A DNA stretch of 28,587 bases, taken from the IMG/VR virus record IMGVR_UViG_2617270959_000006. One strand, 5' to 3'. Of this stretch, positions 3,575-23,614 are shown one piece after another. The notes below the pieces were generated by a model that was given only the letters and a program-made list of their open reading frames with translations, did no database searches and was not told the origin of the DNA. Source of the DNA: a virus. Lineage: Duplodnaviria > Heunggongvirae > Uroviricota > Caudoviricetes. How positions within the stretch are numbered: position 1 is the stretch's first letter; the number at the start of each line of letters is the position of its first letter. Made by a program: the position numbers and the translations under genes.

Positions 3575-3650
<76 letters not shown>

Positions 3651-3653
3651 TAT

Positions 3654-3728
<75 letters not shown>

Positions 3729-5681: not shown

Positions 5682-5818
5682 AATCTTAACTACAATATGA
5701 TTCATTTTGATGATTGTTTCATAAGGAACAGTGAAGTAAGATCTAAGATGAGTTAAATTTTATACAGTATAATCATAATATTGCAGCAAGGTGGTTATAA
5801 TTGAAAGAATATTTAGAT

Positions 5819-7276
5819 ATGAATACATCTCATGTAAGAGTTGTTACTCATATGTGTGGGTTCCTGGTTTGGCTCTATAGTCTTTCAATGTTGCCACCAA
5901 TGGTTGTAGCATTGTTTTATAAAGAAAAAAGCCTGTTCGTTTTCTTTATAACTTTCGTTATATTTTTTTGCATTGGTGGCGGAGCGTGGTATACAACTAA
6001 GAAATCTGGCATTCAATTACGTACCCGTGATGGGTTTATTATAATTGTAATGTTTTGGATTTTGTTTTCTGTTATTAGTGCATTCCCTTTATGGATTGAC
6101 TCAGAACTTAATTTAACGTTCATTGATGCTCTGTTTGAAGGGGTTTCTGGAATAACAACAACAGGAGCAACTGTAATTGATGATGTTAGTTCATTACCTC
6201 GGGCATATTTGTACTATCGGTCACAGTTAAATTTTATAGGTGGTTTAGGAGTTATTGTTCTGGCGGTTGCTGTATTGCCATTATTGGGTATTGGTGGTGC
6301 AAAGCTTTATCAGTCAGAAATGCCGGGGCCATTTAAGGATGACAAACTCACTCCCCGCCTGGCCGATACGTCACGGACACTGTGGATAACTTATTCTTTA
6401 TTAGGTATTGCTTGTATTGTCTGTTATAGACTTGCAGGAATGCCTTTGTTTGATGCTATTTGTCACGGGATTTCCACAGTTTCGCTTGGTGGTTTCTCAA
6501 CTCATAGCGAGAGTATCGGATATTTTAATAACTATTTGGTTGAGCTGGTGGCTGGTTCTTTTTCCCTGCTATCGGCTTTCAACTTCACTCTTTGGTATAT
6601 TGTTATTAGCAGGAAAACGATAAAACCTTTAATCAGAGATATTGAACTTCGTTTCTTTCTGTTAATAGCCTTAGGGGTGATCATTGTTACCTCTTTCCAG
6701 GTCTGGCATATAGGTATGTATGACTTGCATGGAAGTTTTATTCATTCGTTTTTTCTTGCCAGCTCCATGCTCACTGATAATGGTTTAGCTACGCAGGATT
6801 ATGCAAACTGGCCCACGCACACGATAGTGTTTTTGCTGTTGTCAAGTTTCTTTGGGGGATGTATAGGTTCAACTTGTGGTGGAATTAAGTCACTTCGATT
6901 TCTTATACTTTTCAAACAAAGCAAACACGAGATAAATCAGCTTTCTCATCCCAGAGCGTTGTTGAGTGTAAATGTAGGAGGGAAGATAGTTACAGATCGT
7001 GTAATGAGGTCTGTATGGAGTTTCTTTTTTCTTTATACTCTCTTCACGGTGTTTTTTATACTGGTGTTAAATGGTATGGGATATGATTTTCTTACATCAT
7101 TTGCAACAGTGGCTGCATGTATTAATAATATGGGATTAGGTTTTGGGGCTACTGCATCGTCATTCGGAGTGCTTAATGACATTGCAAAATATTTAATGTG
7201 CATAGCTATGATTCTTGGTCGCCTTGAAATTTATCCTGTTATTATATTGTTTTCAGGTTTTTTTTGGCGCTCCTAA
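5819..7276 (+). CDS. trkG: TrkG, Trk-system K+ uptake membrane protein (TrkH/KtrB family), 485 aa; low-GC moron
   Basis: Polytopic membrane protein starting MNTSHVRVVTHMCGFLVWLY..., which I recognise as the Rac-prophage TrkG; markedly AT-rich relative to its neighbours. The track's TTG at 5801 is an alternative start. Confidence 0.9.
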   Translation: MNTSHVRVVTHMCGFLVWLYSLSMLPPMVVALFYKEKSLFVFFITFVIFFCIGGGAWYTTKKSGIQLRTRDGFIIIVMFWILFSVISAFPLWIDSELNLTFIDALFEGVSGITTTGATVIDDVSSLPRAYLYYRSQLNFIGGLGVIVLAVAVLPLLGIGGAKLYQSEMPGPFKDDKLTPRLADTSRTLWITYSLLGIACIVCYRLAGMPLFDAICHGISTVSLGGFSTHSESIGYFNNYLVELVAGSFSLLSAFNFTLWYIVISRKTIKPLIRDIELRFFLLIALGVIIVTSFQVWHIGMYDLHGSFIHSFFLASSMLTDNGLATQDYANWPTHTIVFLLLSSFFGGCIGSTCGGIKSLRFLILFKQSKHEINQLSHPRALLSVNVGGKIVTDRVMRSVWSFFFLYTLFTVFFILVLNGMGYDFLTSFATVAACINNMGLGFGATASSFGVLNDIAKYLMCIAMILGRLEIYPVIILFSGFFWRS

Positions 7277-7413: not shown

Positions 7414-8202
7414 ATGAGCGAGAAATTAAAGATAGTCTATCGCCCATTACAAGAATTGTCACCGTATGCGCACAACGCCAGGACGCACAGTACTGAGCAG
7501 GTGGCACAACTGGTAGAAAGTATTAAGCAATTCGGCTGGACTAATCCGGTGCTGATTGACGAAAAGGGCGAAATTATTGCGGGTCACGGTCGTGTTATGG
7601 CGGCTGAAATGCTCAAAATGGATTCTGTTCCGGTCATTGTTCTGTCTGGCCTGACGGATGAGCAGAAAAAGGCGTACCGCCTGGCAGATAATCGCCTACC
7701 GATGAATGCTGGCTGGGATGAAGATCTATTGCGGATGGAGCTGTCGGACCTAATCAATGCTGATTTTGATGTCTCCCTGACAGGCTTCGGCCCGACAGAA
7801 ATTGATGAACTGTTGACGGATGTTTTGCCCGGTACAGGAAATAAGGAGGAGCCGTATACGACGAAAATTGATACGCCTGTTTATGAGCCGTCGGGCGGTA
7901 AACCGGATATCAGTGAACTGTACGACGATACGAAAACTCAGGAGCTGATCAGCCGGATACGTTCGGCGTCCCTTGATCCTGATATTGAGAAATTCCTCCT
8001 GTGTGCGGCAGAACGTCACACGGTGTTTAATTTCAGCAGAATTGCGGACTATTACGCTCATGCCCCCGCTGAAATTCAGTGCCTTTTCGAGGAGTCGGCG
8101 CTGGTGATCATTGATTATCAGCAGGCTATTGAAAATGGATTTGTCCGAATGACGCAGCGCATGGTGGCGATCATGCATAGCGGGGAGGAGGAATATGCGT
8201 GA
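7414..8202 (+). CDS. ParB/Srx-like nuclease-domain protein (YnaK-like position), 262 aa
   Basis: N-terminal ~90 aa follow the ParB N-domain pattern (PYAHNART...LVESI...GWTNPVLI...IIAGHGRVMAA...VPVIV); C-terminal 170 aa unassigned. Sits in the trkG-ynaK-ydaY position known from Rac. Confidence 0.7.
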   Translation: MSEKLKIVYRPLQELSPYAHNARTHSTEQVAQLVESIKQFGWTNPVLIDEKGEIIAGHGRVMAAEMLKMDSVPVIVLSGLTDEQKKAYRLADNRLPMNAGWDEDLLRMELSDLINADFDVSLTGFGPTEIDELLTDVLPGTGNKEEPYTTKIDTPVYEPSGGKPDISELYDDTKTQELISRIRSASLDPDIEKFLLCAAERHTVFNFSRIADYYAHAPAEIQCLFEESALVIIDYQQAIENGFVRMTQRMVAIMHSGEEEYA

Positions 8203-9127
8203 TGATTTTTGCGCCTTTATTCTGACTCACGGGCGACCGGACAAAGTTCTGACTTACCGGACGTTGCGTCGTGCTGGCTATACCGGGAAAATTTTTATCG
8301 TTGTTGATGATGAAGATAAGACACGGCATCAGTACATGGCTGAATTTGGTGAACAGGTGCTGGTATTTTCCAAAGCCGATATTGCCAGTCGTTTTGACGA
8401 AGCCGATAATTTTGGTGACCGCCGCTCAATTTTTTACGCCCGTAATGCCTGTTTCGACCTGGCAAAACTGGTCGGGTGTAAATACTTCATTCAGCTCGAT
8501 GATGATTATCACGAGTTCCAGTTTCGGGTGGATCGCAACTATGACCAGGCCTATTTCCCGATAAGGAAACTGGATGCGATCCTTTCTGAAATGCTGGCGT
8601 ATTACGAATCAATACCCGCGCTTTCCATCGCTATGTCGCAGGGCGGGGATTTTCTTGGTGACAATGGCGGCCATGCTTCGTGGGTGAAACGCAAGGCAAT
8701 GAACAGCTTTATCTGTTCGGTTGATCGACCGTTCTCATTCATGGGGCGCATTAACGAGGATGTGAATACGTACACGAATCTCGGTCGCTGTGGTGAATTG
8801 TTTATGACGATCGGTGCTGTCCAGTTAGGGCAGAAACAGACGCAGAAAAACAGCGGCGGAATGACCGAGCTGTATCTGGATTCCGGAACCTACGTTAAAA
8901 GTTTTTACTCCGTCATGTATGCGCCGTCGTGCGTAAAAATCTCACTGATGGGTGCCAGCCATAAACGCATTCACCATCAGGTCACCTGGAACAACGCTGC
9001 AGTAAAAATCCTTCACGAAAAATACAGGAAGAAGACACCCTGCATATCAATGGGGGTGACAAATGATTCCGTATTCGAAAGTCGAGTCTCTGGCAGCGTG
9101 CCGGATGACTGCACAACAAATCGCTGA
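8195..9127 (+). CDS. GT-A-like putative glycosyltransferase (YdaY-like position), 310 aa
   Basis: ATG after GAGGAGG and overlapping the upstream stop; motif spacing typical of the GT-A fold: FILTHGRP (8-15), FIVVDDED (34-41), IQLDDDY (99-105, DxD). Fold call is a motif-based inference. Confidence 0.5.
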   Translation: MRDDFCAFILTHGRPDKVLTYRTLRRAGYTGKIFIVVDDEDKTRHQYMAEFGEQVLVFSKADIASRFDEADNFGDRRSIFYARNACFDLAKLVGCKYFIQLDDDYHEFQFRVDRNYDQAYFPIRKLDAILSEMLAYYESIPALSIAMSQGGDFLGDNGGHASWVKRKAMNSFICSVDRPFSFMGRINEDVNTYTNLGRCGELFMTIGAVQLGQKQTQKNSGGMTELYLDSGTYVKSFYSVMYAPSCVKISLMGASHKRIHHQVTWNNAAVKILHEKYRKKTPCISMGVTNDSVFESRVSGSVPDDCTTNR

Positions 9128-9314
9128 CGTTCTGGATGTTGATCTGAACCGACTGAAAGAAAATCGGGAAGCAATGACAGATTTTTATGCGGCCATCCGT
9201 AAGGGCAGAGCGAAAGGTGAAGCCGAGTTACGAGCGGCATTGTTTAAGCTTGCCAGAAAAGGGGATGCCTTTGCTCTGCGCGAACTACTCAGGGTGGATA
9301 AAAATCAGGACTAA
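9063..9314 (+). CDS. Small basic helix-turn-helix-like protein, 83 aa (packaging accessory or regulator?)
   Basis: ATG with GGGGGTGA 5 nt upstream; overlaps the last 65 nt of the upstream gene in another frame; predicted helical, Lys/Arg-rich. Confidence 0.45.
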   Translation: MIPYSKVESLAACRMTAQQIADVLDVDLNRLKENREAMTDFYAAIRKGRAKGEAELRAALFKLARKGDAFALRELLRVDKNQD

Positions 9315-9317
9315 CTG

Positions 9318-10412
9318 ATGAGCAGACCGGACTGGGGGGCGTTGCAGCAGGAGTATATTGCTGAATACACCCGCTCCGGTATATCTCCGGTGGCATGGTG
9401 TGAAGCAAGGGGACTGAACTACGCAACAGCCCGTCGTTACATCAAAAAAACTCCGAAAAATGCGCAGAAAGAAATGCGCAAAACTGCGCAAAAAAGTGCG
9501 CGAAAAAAAACTGCGCAGACTGCGCAAAGGCAGAACGGAAAATCTCAGAAAAAAAAGGCTGTATCCGATGCACTCCTGATTGAGGGGGACACGGAAGAAA
9601 TTTCGTTCTGCCCCGATGAATTCGGTATTTCTGACCAGCAGGCAAAATTCGTCATGTTGGTTGCTCAGGGGAAAAAGCCGACAGAGGCATACCGACTGGC
9701 TGGTTATGAGGGGCAAGGTGCGACAGCTAACAGCAACGCCAGCCGTATGCTTAGAAATGCCAGGGTTTATCGTGCTATCAGCTACTTCCGCAATCAGTAC
9801 CAGAAACGCTATACCGCAGACCTGGATTTACTGGTGAGCCAGTTGATGGCCATTGTCCAGGCCGACCCCAATCAGTTGGCACAATTTCGCCGTGTTAACT
9901 GCCGTTATTGCTGGGGCGAGAATCATCTCTACCAGTGGCGTGATATTGCAGAATTCGATAAGGCTGCGGCACAGGCCTCCAGAGATGGTAAACCCGAGCC
10001 GGAATATGGAGGCCTCGGCTTTGTTGATAACGCCATACCCAATCCGGATTGCCCGAAGTGCTGCGGTGAGGGAACGGGACAGCTTTATATGGCTGATACC
10101 ACACTGCTTGATGGGGATGCGCGGCAATTATATGCAGGGTCAAAGCTCGGAAAATACGGTGTTGAGATCCTGCTGGAGGATAAGGCTGCCGCCCGGCGTG
10201 AATTGTTGCGTTTGCTTTCTGCTGGCGGGGCATTATGTGCAGATAAACGGCTACAGGAACTGGAAATTGAACGGCGCAGAATAGAAAACCAGAAGCTGCG
10301 CAAAGAGATCGAAACGGTGGAGGATAATGAACATCCCCAGCCTGTGGCGATCAATATTAATGTGGTTGATGCCAGATTAAGGAGTGATGAAGATGATCTC
10401 TCCGACGCTTAA
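9318..10412 (+). CDS. Terminase small subunit, atypically long (364 aa) with low-complexity basic region and Cys-rich segment
   Basis: Central region resembles the P27-type small-terminase domain (ISDQQAKFVMLVAQGKKPTEAYRLAGYEG...); lies directly upstream of the large subunit; contains C-x2-C ... C-x2-CC. Confidence 0.65.
   Translation: MSRPDWGALQQEYIAEYTRSGISPVAWCEARGLNYATARRYIKKTPKNAQKEMRKTAQKSARKKTAQTAQRQNGKSQKKKAVSDALLIEGDTEEISFCPDEFGISDQQAKFVMLVAQGKKPTEAYRLAGYEGQGATANSNASRMLRNARVYRAISYFRNQYQKRYTADLDLLVSQLMAIVQADPNQLAQFRRVNCRYCWGENHLYQWRDIAEFDKAAAQASRDGKPEPEYGGLGFVDNAIPNPDCPKCCGEGTGQLYMADTTLLDGDARQLYAGSKLGKYGVEILLEDKAAARRELLRLLSAGGALCADKRLQELEIERRRIENQKLRKEIETVEDNEHPQPVAININVVDARLRSDEDDLSDA
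9461..9526. repeat. Array of six TGCGC(A/G) motifs at 9-15 bp spacing inside terS
   Basis: Motifs at 9461, 9475, 9485, 9497, 9512 and 9521, interspersed with A-runs; encode KNAQKEMRKTAQKSARKKTAQTAQRQ. Confidence 0.8.
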
Positions 10413-11694
10413 TGTGCCTCAGGCGCGATTTCTTTCAATGCCCCATAAATTTAAAGCCTATATTGCTGGTTTTGGCTCGGGCAAAACATGGGTTGGGTGT
10501 GGCGGCATATGCAAGGGGATTTGGGAGCATCCAGGTATAAATCAGGGATATTTTGCGCCAACGTATCCCCAAATTCGCGATATTTTTTACCCTACAGTGG
10601 AAGAAGTTGCTGCTGACTGGGGATTGAACGTAAAAATTAATGAGGGAAATAAAGAGGTTCACTTTTATTACGGACGCCAGTATCGGGGAACCACTATCTG
10701 CAGATCGATGGAGAAGCCACAAACGATCGTCGGTTTCAAAATTGGTAATGCGCTGGTGGATGAACTGGATATTTTGCCGAAGGAAAAAGCCAGAACGGCG
10801 TGGCGCAAGATAATTGCGCGTATGCGTTATAAGATTGATGGACTTCGCAACGGTATTGACGTTACAACCACGCCGGAAGGATTCAAATTTGTCTACGAGC
10901 AGTTTGTTAAAGCCGTGCGTGAAAAAACAGAGCTGGCCTCACTGTATGGTCTGGTGCAGGCATCTACTTTCGATAATGAAAAGAACCTGCCAGCAGATTA
11001 CATTCCTTCACTTCTTGAATCATACCCTCCAGGGTTGATTAAAGCCTATCTTCTAGGACGGTTTACTAACCTGACAAGTGGTACTGTTTACCATCAGTTT
11101 GACCGGAAACTGAATAATTGCGAAGAAGTGGAGCAGCCAGGGGAGCCGATTTATATTGGGATGGATTTTAACGTTGGAAAGATGGCGGGAATCGTCCATG
11201 TGCTGCGTTTGGGGCTTCCATGTGCGGTAACTGAAATCATCAATGCCTACGATACGCCGGATATGATCCGCCTCATTAAAGAACGCTTCTGGCCGTATGA
11301 CGGGCATGATTACCGGAAAGTGAGGGAGATTTATATTTATCCAGATGCTTCCGGAGATTCCAGAAAATCAAGTAACGCAAGTACGACGGATATAGCCCAG
11401 CTTAAGCAGGCAGGTTTTAACGTTGTGGTGAACAGCTCGAACCCGCCAGTAAAAGATCGCGTTAACTCAATGAATGCAATGTTCTGCAATGCCAATGGTG
11501 AGCGTCGCTATAAAGTTAATGTGAAGCGTTGTCCGGTATATGCCGAATCTCTGGAGCAACAGGTCTGGGATGATAAGGGGGAGCCTGATAAAAAATCTGG
11601 CAATGATCACCCGAATGATGCCGGAGGTTATTTCATCGTTAAGCAATTCCCTATTGTCAAACCGACCGGAAGAGTCACATCACTTCGGATTTAA
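10393..11694 (+). CDS. Terminase large subunit, ~433 aa
   Basis: Walker A-like GFGSGKT near the N-terminus, acidic nuclease-type C-terminal half; AAGGAG 8 nt upstream of the ATG at 10393. The track's GTG at 10384 is an alternative start. Confidence 0.85.
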   Translation: MISPTLNVPQARFLSMPHKFKAYIAGFGSGKTWVGCGGICKGIWEHPGINQGYFAPTYPQIRDIFYPTVEEVAADWGLNVKINEGNKEVHFYYGRQYRGTTICRSMEKPQTIVGFKIGNALVDELDILPKEKARTAWRKIIARMRYKIDGLRNGIDVTTTPEGFKFVYEQFVKAVREKTELASLYGLVQASTFDNEKNLPADYIPSLLESYPPGLIKAYLLGRFTNLTSGTVYHQFDRKLNNCEEVEQPGEPIYIGMDFNVGKMAGIVHVLRLGLPCAVTEIINAYDTPDMIRLIKERFWPYDGHDYRKVREIYIYPDASGDSRKSSNASTTDIAQLKQAGFNVVVNSSNPPVKDRVNSMNAMFCNANGERRYKVNVKRCPVYAESLEQQVWDDKGEPDKKSGNDHPNDAGGYFIVKQFPIVKPTGRVTSLRI

Positions 11695-23317: not shown

Positions 23318-23614
23318 ATGAAAACAGAAAATAAACCATCGATAAAAACTGTAAGATTTGGTGATGGTTATGAGCAACGAAGTCCAAATGGACTTAATCA
23401 TTCTCTGCGCGTTTTCACCTGTGATTTCAAAGTTGAGGCGAATGAACGTGATTCATTTGAAAAATTTTTAGCCCGGCATGAAGGCTATAAATCTTTTTTT
23501 TGGCGCCCGCCGGGTATTAACAGAAAAATCAGAGTGGTGTGTCGAACGTGGTCAGCGACAGAACATATCACCTATACCGATTTTTCGTGTCAGTTTGACG
23601 AAGTGGTGATCTGA
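23318..23614 (+). CDS. M: Minor tail protein M (lambda gpM homolog), 98 aa
   Basis: ATG at 23318 with GAGGA SD; ...VRFGDGYEQRSPNGLN...FLARHEGYKSFFWRPP...FDEVVI matches lambda M as I recall it. The track's 23276 start overlaps the TMP end. Confidence 0.85.
   Translation: MKTENKPSIKTVRFGDGYEQRSPNGLNHSLRVFTCDFKVEANERDSFEKFLARHEGYKSFFWRPPGINRKIRVVCRTWSATEHITYTDFSCQFDEVVI

Follow-up and report, generated by a model that had tools for sequence, protein, structure and literature searches.

How the small terminase subunit (TerS) of a pac phage chooses its own DNA for packaging is a long-standing problem, and a 28,587-nt stretch of Caudoviricetes DNA (IMG/VR record IMGVR_UViG_2617270959_000006; hereafter the window, meaning the whole stretch) raises it in a direct form. 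Within the terS gene of this window, six copies of the hexamer TGCGC(A/G) are packed into 66 bp of linker-coding sequence. Are they a packaging signal, a by-product of the peptide they encode, or a site with some other duty? A preliminary description, made from the letters alone, had proposed a pac site. Comparison with homologous loci, together with the analogy to phage P1, leads us to consider it probable that the array is the cis-acting pac site of a prophage terminase, read by the N-terminal domain (N-domain) of the very protein in which it lies. The parts of the gene, in positions of the window, are these:

9318–10412, + strand: terS, small terminase subunit of 364 amino acids (aa), assigned from Pfam, PHROG and its position upstream of terL
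9318–9449, + strand: N-domain, aa 1–44, MSRPDWGALQQEYIAEYTRSGISPVAWCEARGLNYATARRYIKK, a predicted three-helix fold resembling a helix-turn-helix (HTH) and the proposed reader of the array
9420–9440, + strand: third helix of the AlphaFold model, codons 35–41 (Y-A-T-A-R-R-Y), the putative recognition helix
9432–9434, + strand: codon 39 (Arg), the specificity-associated position, from a column comparison between classes
9450–9620, + strand: linker-coding region, aa 45–101, Lys/Ala/Gln-rich, probably a disordered tether
9461–9526, no strand assigned: proposed TerS recognition (pac) element, six hexamers in a single cluster
9678–10265, + strand: Terminase_2 core, aa 121–316, from Pfam, containing the HTH region of the family itself plus an insertion that bears CxxC...CxxC motifs

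TerS is a mosaic of the N-terminal recognition domain, the low-complexity linker, the Terminase_2 core and a C-terminal tail. Its assignment comes from a Pfam match of aa 121–316 to Terminase_2 (PF03592; E 9.5e-9, 36.4 bits against a gathering score of 26.1) and from PHROG 51, “terminase small subunit” (E 4e-75). Deposited phages carry genes about 94% identical that are annotated as terS, and DNA about 95.7% identical to the terS region is found in isolated viruses, namely Salmonella phage SPF_0923 and the E. coli vB_EcoS phage series.

All six hexamers lie on the + strand within terS, at the positions where the preliminary description had placed them. TGCGCA starts at 9461, 9475, 9485, 9512 and 9521, and the fourth copy, starting at 9497, is a degenerate TGCGCG where most close alleles have TGCGCA. 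Together they occupy nt 144–209 of the gene, begin 11 bp past the last codon of the N-domain and share an extended consensus of approximately C-TGCGCA-A. Clustering of this kind is beyond chance. Over the whole window TGCGCR shows no overall enrichment (37 hits on both strands, 47.7 expected), and six of its 21 plus-strand copies fall into these 66 bp; the largest 66-bp cluster in 200 first-order Markov simulations of the window held three. Simulating the composition of 9441–9560 gave a mean of 0.49 copies, and resampling synonymous codons with the exact protein held gave 0.79; six or more copies were reached in none of 20,000 runs of either kind.

Two finer points fared less well. The phasing proposed in the preliminary description, roughly one motif per helical turn, is only loose: the copies are spaced by 14, 10, 12, 15 and 9 bp (mean 12), and 12 nt is the modal spacing across the family. 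The A-runs near the array (A7 at 9444–9450, A5 at 9456–9460, A6 at 9490–9495, A8 at 9503–9510 and A8 at 9549–9556) find no support as a component of the signal, since neither the Klebsiella nor the Aeromonas arrays conserve them. Searches returned no second hexamer cluster in 9400–9800 (at most one mismatch) and no consensus for integration host factor (IHF) near the array (up to one mismatch). Just 3' of the array, 9529–9545 and 9596–9612 form an imperfect 17-nt inverted repeat, 82% complementary and 50 nt apart. A related inverted repeat is apparently present in SPF_0923 as well, and the repeat could mark a cleavage region.

Is the hexamer maintained as DNA, or does it merely follow the protein? 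We gathered 137 further loci with an N-domain from viral and bacterial genome collections, and compared 105 intact, distinct genes. The homologous loci with a hexamer directly after the N-domain range from Enterobacterales to Vibrio, and each belongs to one of a few classes defined by its hexamer. The first copy begins at gene nt 131–163, directly after codon 44, and in all but one of the 105 genes the class motif was, de novo, the commonest hexamer in gene nt 121–360 (in the remaining one it was outranked). Motif density is 25.8 per kb in codons 44–110 and 2.2 per kb in the rest of the gene. Codon resampling of 104 loci, 300 times each, gave an expectation from the protein sequence of 0.56 copies per locus against a mean of 5.2 observed, and in 101 of the 104 the observed number was reached by none of the 300 resamplings. 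Judged by these comparisons, selection acts on the hexamer as DNA and not through the protein. Lineages differ freely in the number of copies, in their spacing and in the sequence of the spacers, and some close alleles have lost single copies, so the array appears to be a redundant set of short sites.

The obvious competing origin is the linker itself, whose repeats might have arisen by slippage or duplication of a unit encoding K-T-A-Q, with no function at the DNA level. The region does encode a repetitive Lys/Ala/Gln-rich peptide, whole units have been gained and lost among alleles (9- and 27-nt indels), and 12 nt, the commonest spacing, is divisible by three. We nonetheless regard this origin as very unlikely. 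One of the six copies in the window is in a different frame, as are copies in 86 of the 105 loci, where the class motif is read in more than one frame (giving M-R, L-R or C-A). The exact peptide predicts 0.6–0.8 copies rather than five to six. In Klebsiella phage ST974-OXA48phi18.2, whose TerS is 39% identical, six TGCGCA copies stand in the same place in all three frames, read as T-A-Q, L-R and C-A. From E. coli to Vibrio, moreover, the hexamer of each class is retained although the peptide differs wholly between classes: it is basic K-T-A-Q in the window, A-N or C-E in phages with TGCGAA, and in 933W an acidic I-D-H-E.

The low-complexity peptide quoted in the preliminary description, KNAQKEMRKTAQKSARKKTAQTAQRQNGKSQKKK, is indeed the correct translation within the open reading frame (ORF) 9318–10412. 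A second role for the repeat, in the protein, is not supported by the family: since the peptide changes completely with the DNA motif and the reading frame varies, the linker looks like a passenger or flexible tether. It spans about 55 residues between the 44-residue N-domain and the Terminase_2 core, and the AlphaFold confidence score (pLDDT) drops to 47–64 past residue 41. Across the sequences compared, linker composition is set by the embedded DNA motif and the A-rich spacers, and the Lys/Ala/Gln-rich peptide would be largely a translation of the DNA signal. The protein database also holds many “proteins” of 44–77 aa that consist of the N-domain and part of the linker (P0121–P0240), and several loci are frameshifted inside the linker (L054, L109, L113, L140 and L143–L147), L054 by an extra base in a short A-run just before the first hexamer. 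These short and frameshifted forms may be pseudogenes, homopolymer sequencing errors or slippage products.

The array and the N-domain keep company to the point of obligate association in the sequences sampled. For a search in the reverse direction, 80 triple-TGCGCA arrays were sampled from a collection of 2.9 million viral contigs, and 58 of them lay within 450 nt of an N-domain; among the others, one was cut by a contig end, one followed a divergent HTH, and the rest were mostly exact tandem repeats or GC-rich DNA. One viral contig (L217:1949–2581) encodes a protein starting MPKKTDTDWHAIEADFRAGALSNRQIAKKHGVAESTLRKRIASGGW, an HTH missed by the N-domain profile, followed by six TGCGCA copies in several frames, and the module family is probably wider than the loci sampled. 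Homologous TerS bodies that lack the N-domain (Bcep22, Skulduggery) have no array. Escherichia phage Rac-SA53 has lost its N-domain and first hexamer through a deletion that joined a different gene to terS; of the five hexamer positions left, three are point-mutated and two are intact. Its depositors annotate the gene (L002:2412–3440) as a deletion-made gpO-terS fusion, and heat-labile enterotoxin IIa genes lie just upstream of it.

The pattern recurs in Actinobacillus phage pPE4, where the same Terminase_2 body bears a different, unrelated N-terminal HTH (Pfam HTH_50, E 2e-6) with its own array behind it. GTTTCC/GGAAAC occurs there in four exact copies against 0.31 expected, a number reached in 0 of 5000 trials. 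Counting GTTTCC, GGAAAC and TGGAAA, this array has seven copies in about 75 bp, in both orientations (L003:2208–3299 and L149:1501–2592). The pPE4-type module rests on two near-identical loci, the second being the only one that a scan for more returned.

The array might alternatively act in RNA or transcription, either as mRNA hairpins between pairs of UGCGCA or as minus-strand hairpins with T-runs that terminate antisense transcription. Three minus-strand terminator-like hairpins are called at 9461–9527, where 1.2 would be expected for the region. These calls follow automatically from a palindromic hexamer combined with plus-strand A-runs, however, and the family offers little to such an element: TGCGAA arrays are mostly direct and non-palindromic, the Aeromonas array has no A/T runs, and an Rfam scan matched no family (best hit E 0.56, its 19.7 bits falling below the gathering score of 80). 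We find this explanation hardly credible.

What kind of domain precedes the array? An AlphaFold model of the N-domain, built on 78 sequences, has helices at residues 6–20, 24–31 and 35–41, with a pLDDT of about 85 over residues 11–40. Foldseek searches with this model returned HTH DNA-binding domains as nearly all of the best matches, none of them at E ≤ 0.001, and a Pfam scan of the N-domain alone gave nothing meaningful. The model thus predicts an HTH-like DNA-binding domain. Among close alleles the N-domain is the best-conserved part of terS, with a mean column variability of 1% compared with 6–11% downstream.

How does the hexamer relate to the putative recognition helix of the N-domain? 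The classes, each given by the residues of helix 3, fall out as follows:

Helix A-R-R-(Y/H): hexamer TGCGCA in 86 of 86 loci; one variant with His39 also has TGCGCA
Helix A-K-R-(Y/H): hexamer TGCGAA or its complement TTCGCA in 18 of 18 loci
Helix A-R-T-R (933W-type Stx phages): hexamer (C/T)GATCAT, four to five copies with a 12-nt period, in 13 of 13 distinct loci and in 933W
Helix A-R-R-Y on the same Stx-type body (75% identical): hexamer TGCGCA, five to seven copies, in five of five loci

No mixed combination of helix and hexamer was seen among the loci sampled. The rule extends to Aeromonas phage phiARM81mr (seven TGCGCA), Vibrio phage douglas 12A4 (five TGCGCA) and Providencia phage PSTCR3 (seven TGCGAA/TTCGCA). 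Position 39 is the sole column of the 44 in which the residues of the two main classes are disjoint, with Arg (and one His) for TGCGCA and Lys for TGCGAA; in the GATCAT class positions 40–41 are changed from R-Y to T-R. Helix 3 holds the only consistent class-specific protein difference nearby, and the hexamer of a class persists even where the sequences have diverged deeply and the array has turned over completely. In these alignments, the class hexamers therefore track helix 3.

This arrangement has a counterpart whose function has been examined by experiment. The pac site of phage P1 comprises seven to eight TGATCA/G hexamers, and mutating them synonymously lowers the titre about 9-fold and reduces packaging (PMC10028697). 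Annotations of pacA, of an IHF site and of the positions cleaved at pac are given in the P1 genome record; within pacA the hexamers lie at gene nt 194–233 and 324–380, in two frames, flanking cleavage at nt 276–285. As in the window, a 6-bp element is repeated in the 5' part of the recognition-subunit gene, 3' of an N-domain containing T-A-R-R-Y, and the copies stand in more than one frame, yielding an odd low-complexity peptide. The identity of architecture, as read from the two genes, is accompanied by suggestive homology between the domains: hhalign aligns the PacA N-terminus with the N-domain at E 5.9e-5 (probability 65%) over 44 columns that include N-T-A-R-R-Y. P1's bipartite layout is itself common to many relatives of the window gene (a 323–338-aa group, a 235-aa group and PhiR12_3).

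The two systems also differ. The window hexamer TGCGCA has no GATC, so Dam regulation cannot apply to this array; the array begins 11 bp past the domain rather than about 60 bp; the TerS body is a Terminase_2 unrelated to that of PacA, and its large terminase is not PacB. Closer to P1 in one respect is the 933W class, whose hexamers contain GATC. In 933W itself (gene L0112, L152:1201–2007; also L153–L192) terS encodes the helix T-A-R-T-R, with the array directly after the N-domain. Arrays of this type have an exact 12-nt period, every hexamer contains a Dam GATC site as in P1 pac, and one or two vestigial TGCGCA/TGTGCA copies lie about 75 nt downstream. Their sequence suggests a Dam-sensitive, P1-like pac in Stx phages.

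A site to which TerS binds might serve regulation alone, tuning the expression of terS and terL or coupling translation to assembly, with packaging starting elsewhere. Such an account draws on the position of the site inside the coding region of its own would-be binder and on the single cluster in the window, which lacks P1's central cleavage and IHF region; the comparative tools used here, moreover, cannot tell binding from initiation of packaging. Against it stand the established role of TerS DNA-binding domains, which is pac or cos recognition (PMC9611059, PMC11331095), and the fact that in P1 the same architecture is the packaging site itself (PMC10028697). No other conserved repeat cluster or candidate site was seen in the 28.6-kb window, and a promoter scan of 9000–10000 found no promoter-like site. 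We consider a purely regulatory role unlikely.

Is the site, then, of the pac or the cos type? Repeated TerS-binding elements beside the terminase genes are a hallmark of lambda cosB (PMC9611059); TerS might bind the repeats while the large subunit, TerL, nicks a fixed cos to yield unit-length genomes. The large terminase gene of the window bears on this:

10384–11694, + strand: terL, large terminase, with Terminase_6N (E 3e-31) and Terminase_6C (E 8e-11) domains, its start overlapped by terS; the enzyme expected to cut close to the recognised site and to translocate the DNA

These domains are of the T4 type, not the GpA/cos type of lambda, and the nearest characterised relatives of this terL belong to Jersey-like and Kagunavirus siphophages, which we take to be headful packagers, as they are generally regarded. 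Lambda's cosB differs further in its surroundings, as the repeats of the window lie inside terS rather than between a cosN nicking site and the gene, and have no IHF site. The Terminase_2 core offers a second line of comparison: F116, phiC725A and Bcep22-like phages have a homologous core (aa ~104–316, 33–36% identity), although they lack the 44-aa N-domain, the linker and the TGCGCA array. F116 and phiC725A are headful packagers with circularly permuted, terminally redundant genomes; initiation in phiC725A maps near or inside terS, where the maximum of virion-read coverage begins at position 23,500 (PMC5217972). The closest architectural match, P1, is likewise a pac phage. A cosB-like site consequently appears improbable.

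Other well-studied phages resemble the window in part. P22, with a 22-bp site in gene 3, and Sf6 also have pac inside the small-terminase coding sequence and package by the headful mechanism (PMC9611059, PMC11260489). The P22 site is a single asymmetric 22-bp pac (17-nt consensus), not an array of short repeats, and gp3 has no separate, tethered N-terminal HTH of the kind seen here; in vitro, P22 TerS has yet to be shown to bind pac specifically (PMC9611059). Lambda gpNu1, with its winged HTH, on the cosB R-elements and SPP1 G1P on pacL/pacR are likenesses of another sort, for there the N-terminal HTH of TerS reads several repeats; binding is multivalent, and the initiation complex is believed to be built by bending of the DNA (PMC9611059). 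At about 16 bp in lambda, their sites exceed those of the window in length, and most of them are found upstream of the TerS coding region or otherwise outside it, whereas those of the window are 6 bp and lie within linker-coding DNA, and the reader in the window is an extra domain placed ahead of a complete Terminase_2 TerS. Lambda, in addition, is a cos phage with a GpA-type TerL.

Several observations count against reading the array as a pac site recognized by the N-domain. The HTH assignment combines a moderate-confidence model with non-significant fold matches. P1 has 4 + 3 hexamers around a central cleavage and IHF region, compared with one cluster of six in the window, and by HMMER PacA is a weak hit (E 0.075), yet the best non-self hit among 767 ORFs. 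Residue 39 alone is no universal or sufficient code, since the T-A-R-R-Y helix of PacA goes with TGATCA. Among close alleles, motif columns are 96% and spacers 95% conserved, a divergence too shallow to inform; individual copies are lost in some of them, so no single copy is essential. The searchable literature yielded no end mapping, binding assay or mutant for this phage or for any carrier of the TGCGCA class.

The association with helix 3 also calls for caution. The closest pair of genes with Arg and Lys at position 39 is near-identical over nt 1–110, after which, immediately 5' of codon 38, the two sequences part abruptly. A mere 20–30 nt or so separate codon 39 from the array, and residue and array are co-inherited by linkage across this recombination junction. 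As the two were exchanged together, the perfect association represents a few old linked haplotypes rather than about 100 independent events, and the seven changes counted by the Fitch method on the N-domain tree are mostly recombination.

Linkage of this kind would leave room for another binder, such as a host nucleoid protein, a different phage protein or an enzyme of the methyltransferase or restriction type, the tie to helix 3 being genetic only. TGCGCA is a palindrome, like the target of a type II enzyme, the hexamers of the GATCAT class and of P1 contain Dam sites, and P1 pairs the T-A-R-R-Y helix with a different hexamer. Yet from Vibrio to Pasteurella to E. coli, on unrelated TerS bodies, the arrays occur only after an N-terminal HTH; TGCGAA is non-palindromic; the different HTH of pPE4 comes with a different array; and copies are mutated in the single locus from which the N-domain was deleted. 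We judge such a binder distinctly unlikely. Neither it nor a purely regulatory role explains the parallel with P1 or the obligate link to an N-terminal HTH of a terminase.

The proposal of a DNA-level packaging recognition signal inside terS, made in the preliminary description, thus gains strong support from the conservation of the hexamer across frames, its tracking of helix 3 and the architecture of P1, which are arguments of comparison and analogy. Its working might be pictured as follows. TerS would assemble into its usual ring, the N-domain of every subunit being joined to it by a long tether, both flexible and basic. Several of these domains would then bind the close-set, redundant 6-bp sites, weak contacts adding up to a specific multivalent complex on concatemers. 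TerL would be recruited next and make the first cut in or near the array, from where headful packaging would proceed. Each of these elements is an inference: the binding of the N-domain to the hexamers, the multivalent binding of the ring, the position of the cut, the headful mode and the direction of packaging. Placed within DNA that codes for a disordered linker, the signal could be kept at little cost to the protein, and because reader and site are adjacent, they could be inherited and exchanged as one cassette.

Evidence for the ends of related phages was also sought in deposited records. The records of vB_EcoP_phi296 and EDL933-Stx end inside terS, but we did not accept them as evidence of physical ends: by convention, each record simply begins at the ATG of terL, which overlaps terS by 20 nt. 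Several partial vB_EcoS records that begin 4,119 nt upstream of terS were set aside, as they resemble breaks in assembly. A Yersinia phage paper held no packaging data, and the literature available to full-text search contained no description of the TGCGCA/TGCGAA arrays, the N-domain or the cassette.

How far has the pairing of domain and array travelled? The N-domain is found at the N-terminus of several different PHROG TerS families and occurs in 258 deposited phage records, including most 933W-type Stx phages; of 5,426 complete E. coli genomes, 884 carry the allele of the window. N-domain and array occur together on Terminase_2 bodies and on bodies negative in Pfam (RothC, PhiR12_3/933W and Pasteurella Pmp11). 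Body types were defined here by Pfam presence or absence; single-linkage clustering was dropped because everything merged via shared C-terminal tails. The cassette also sits on Terminase_2 bodies whose C-terminal tail differs. In abundant alleles from E. coli and Salmonella, N-domain, array and core are retained while a tail of about 60 residues (window aa ~300–364) is swapped for the Rac-SA53/pPE4 version (proteins P0049, P0071 and P0065), which presumably matches a different large terminase.

We tentatively read these distributions, at somewhat less than even confidence, as those of a portable packaging-specificity cassette in temperate phages of Gammaproteobacteria: a 44-residue HTH with 6-bp sites in the adjacent linker-coding DNA, its specificity set by helix 3, shuffled among unrelated TerS bodies, including those of Stx phages, with P1 PacA probably among its distant members. 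Under this tentative reading, R-R-Y would specify TGCGCA, K-R-Y TGCGAA and R-T-R GATCAT.

The genes around terS place it in a familiar setting. Portal, head and tail genes follow 3' of terL; 5' of terS lie NinB, Q, two tRNAs, lysis genes, and trkG-like, ParB-like and glucosyltransferase genes. The window is the late region of a Rac-like lambdoid prophage. The two tRNA genes, Thr-TGT and Gly-TCC, are at 3575–3728. A trkG-like gene for potassium uptake (491 aa; 5801–7276, + strand) is carried as cargo between lysis genes and packaging module, as in the Rac prophage of E. coli K-12. Directly 5' of the packaging genes (7414–9127, + strand), a ParB_N-domain protein overlaps a homologue of TET-associated glycosyltransferases (Pfam TAGT, E 5e-35; PHROG 842, “beta-glucosyl-HMC-alpha-glucosyltransferase”). 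The pair may form a DNA-modification module. An 83-aa ORF at 9063–9314 (+ strand) ends 4 nt before terS and is kept in SPF_0923. It has no Pfam match and matches PHROG 309, “terminase small subunit”, at profile positions 145–218 of 319 (E 8e-23), and it may represent what is left of a different type of TerS, or else a small accessory protein that binds DNA.

Specific binding of TerS to pac has been hard to show in vitro for P22, Sf6, SPP1 and SF6, and its mechanism is disputed (PMC9611059, PMC11331095). The family described here is a natural experiment on this problem, with a small, separable HTH, a short, repeated and easily mutated target, and natural specificity variants that lie one to three helix residues and one to a few hexamer bases apart. 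Knowledge of the pac signal would make the starts of lateral transduction in these lysogens and pseudo-pac sites predictable, and phagemids and packaging-deficient helpers for these phages could be designed. If the cassette reading is true, one could read pac recognition from the sequence and re-program it, the linker peptides of TerS would amount to “translated pac sites”, and the Dam-sensitive mechanism of P1 may also act in 933W-type Stx phages.

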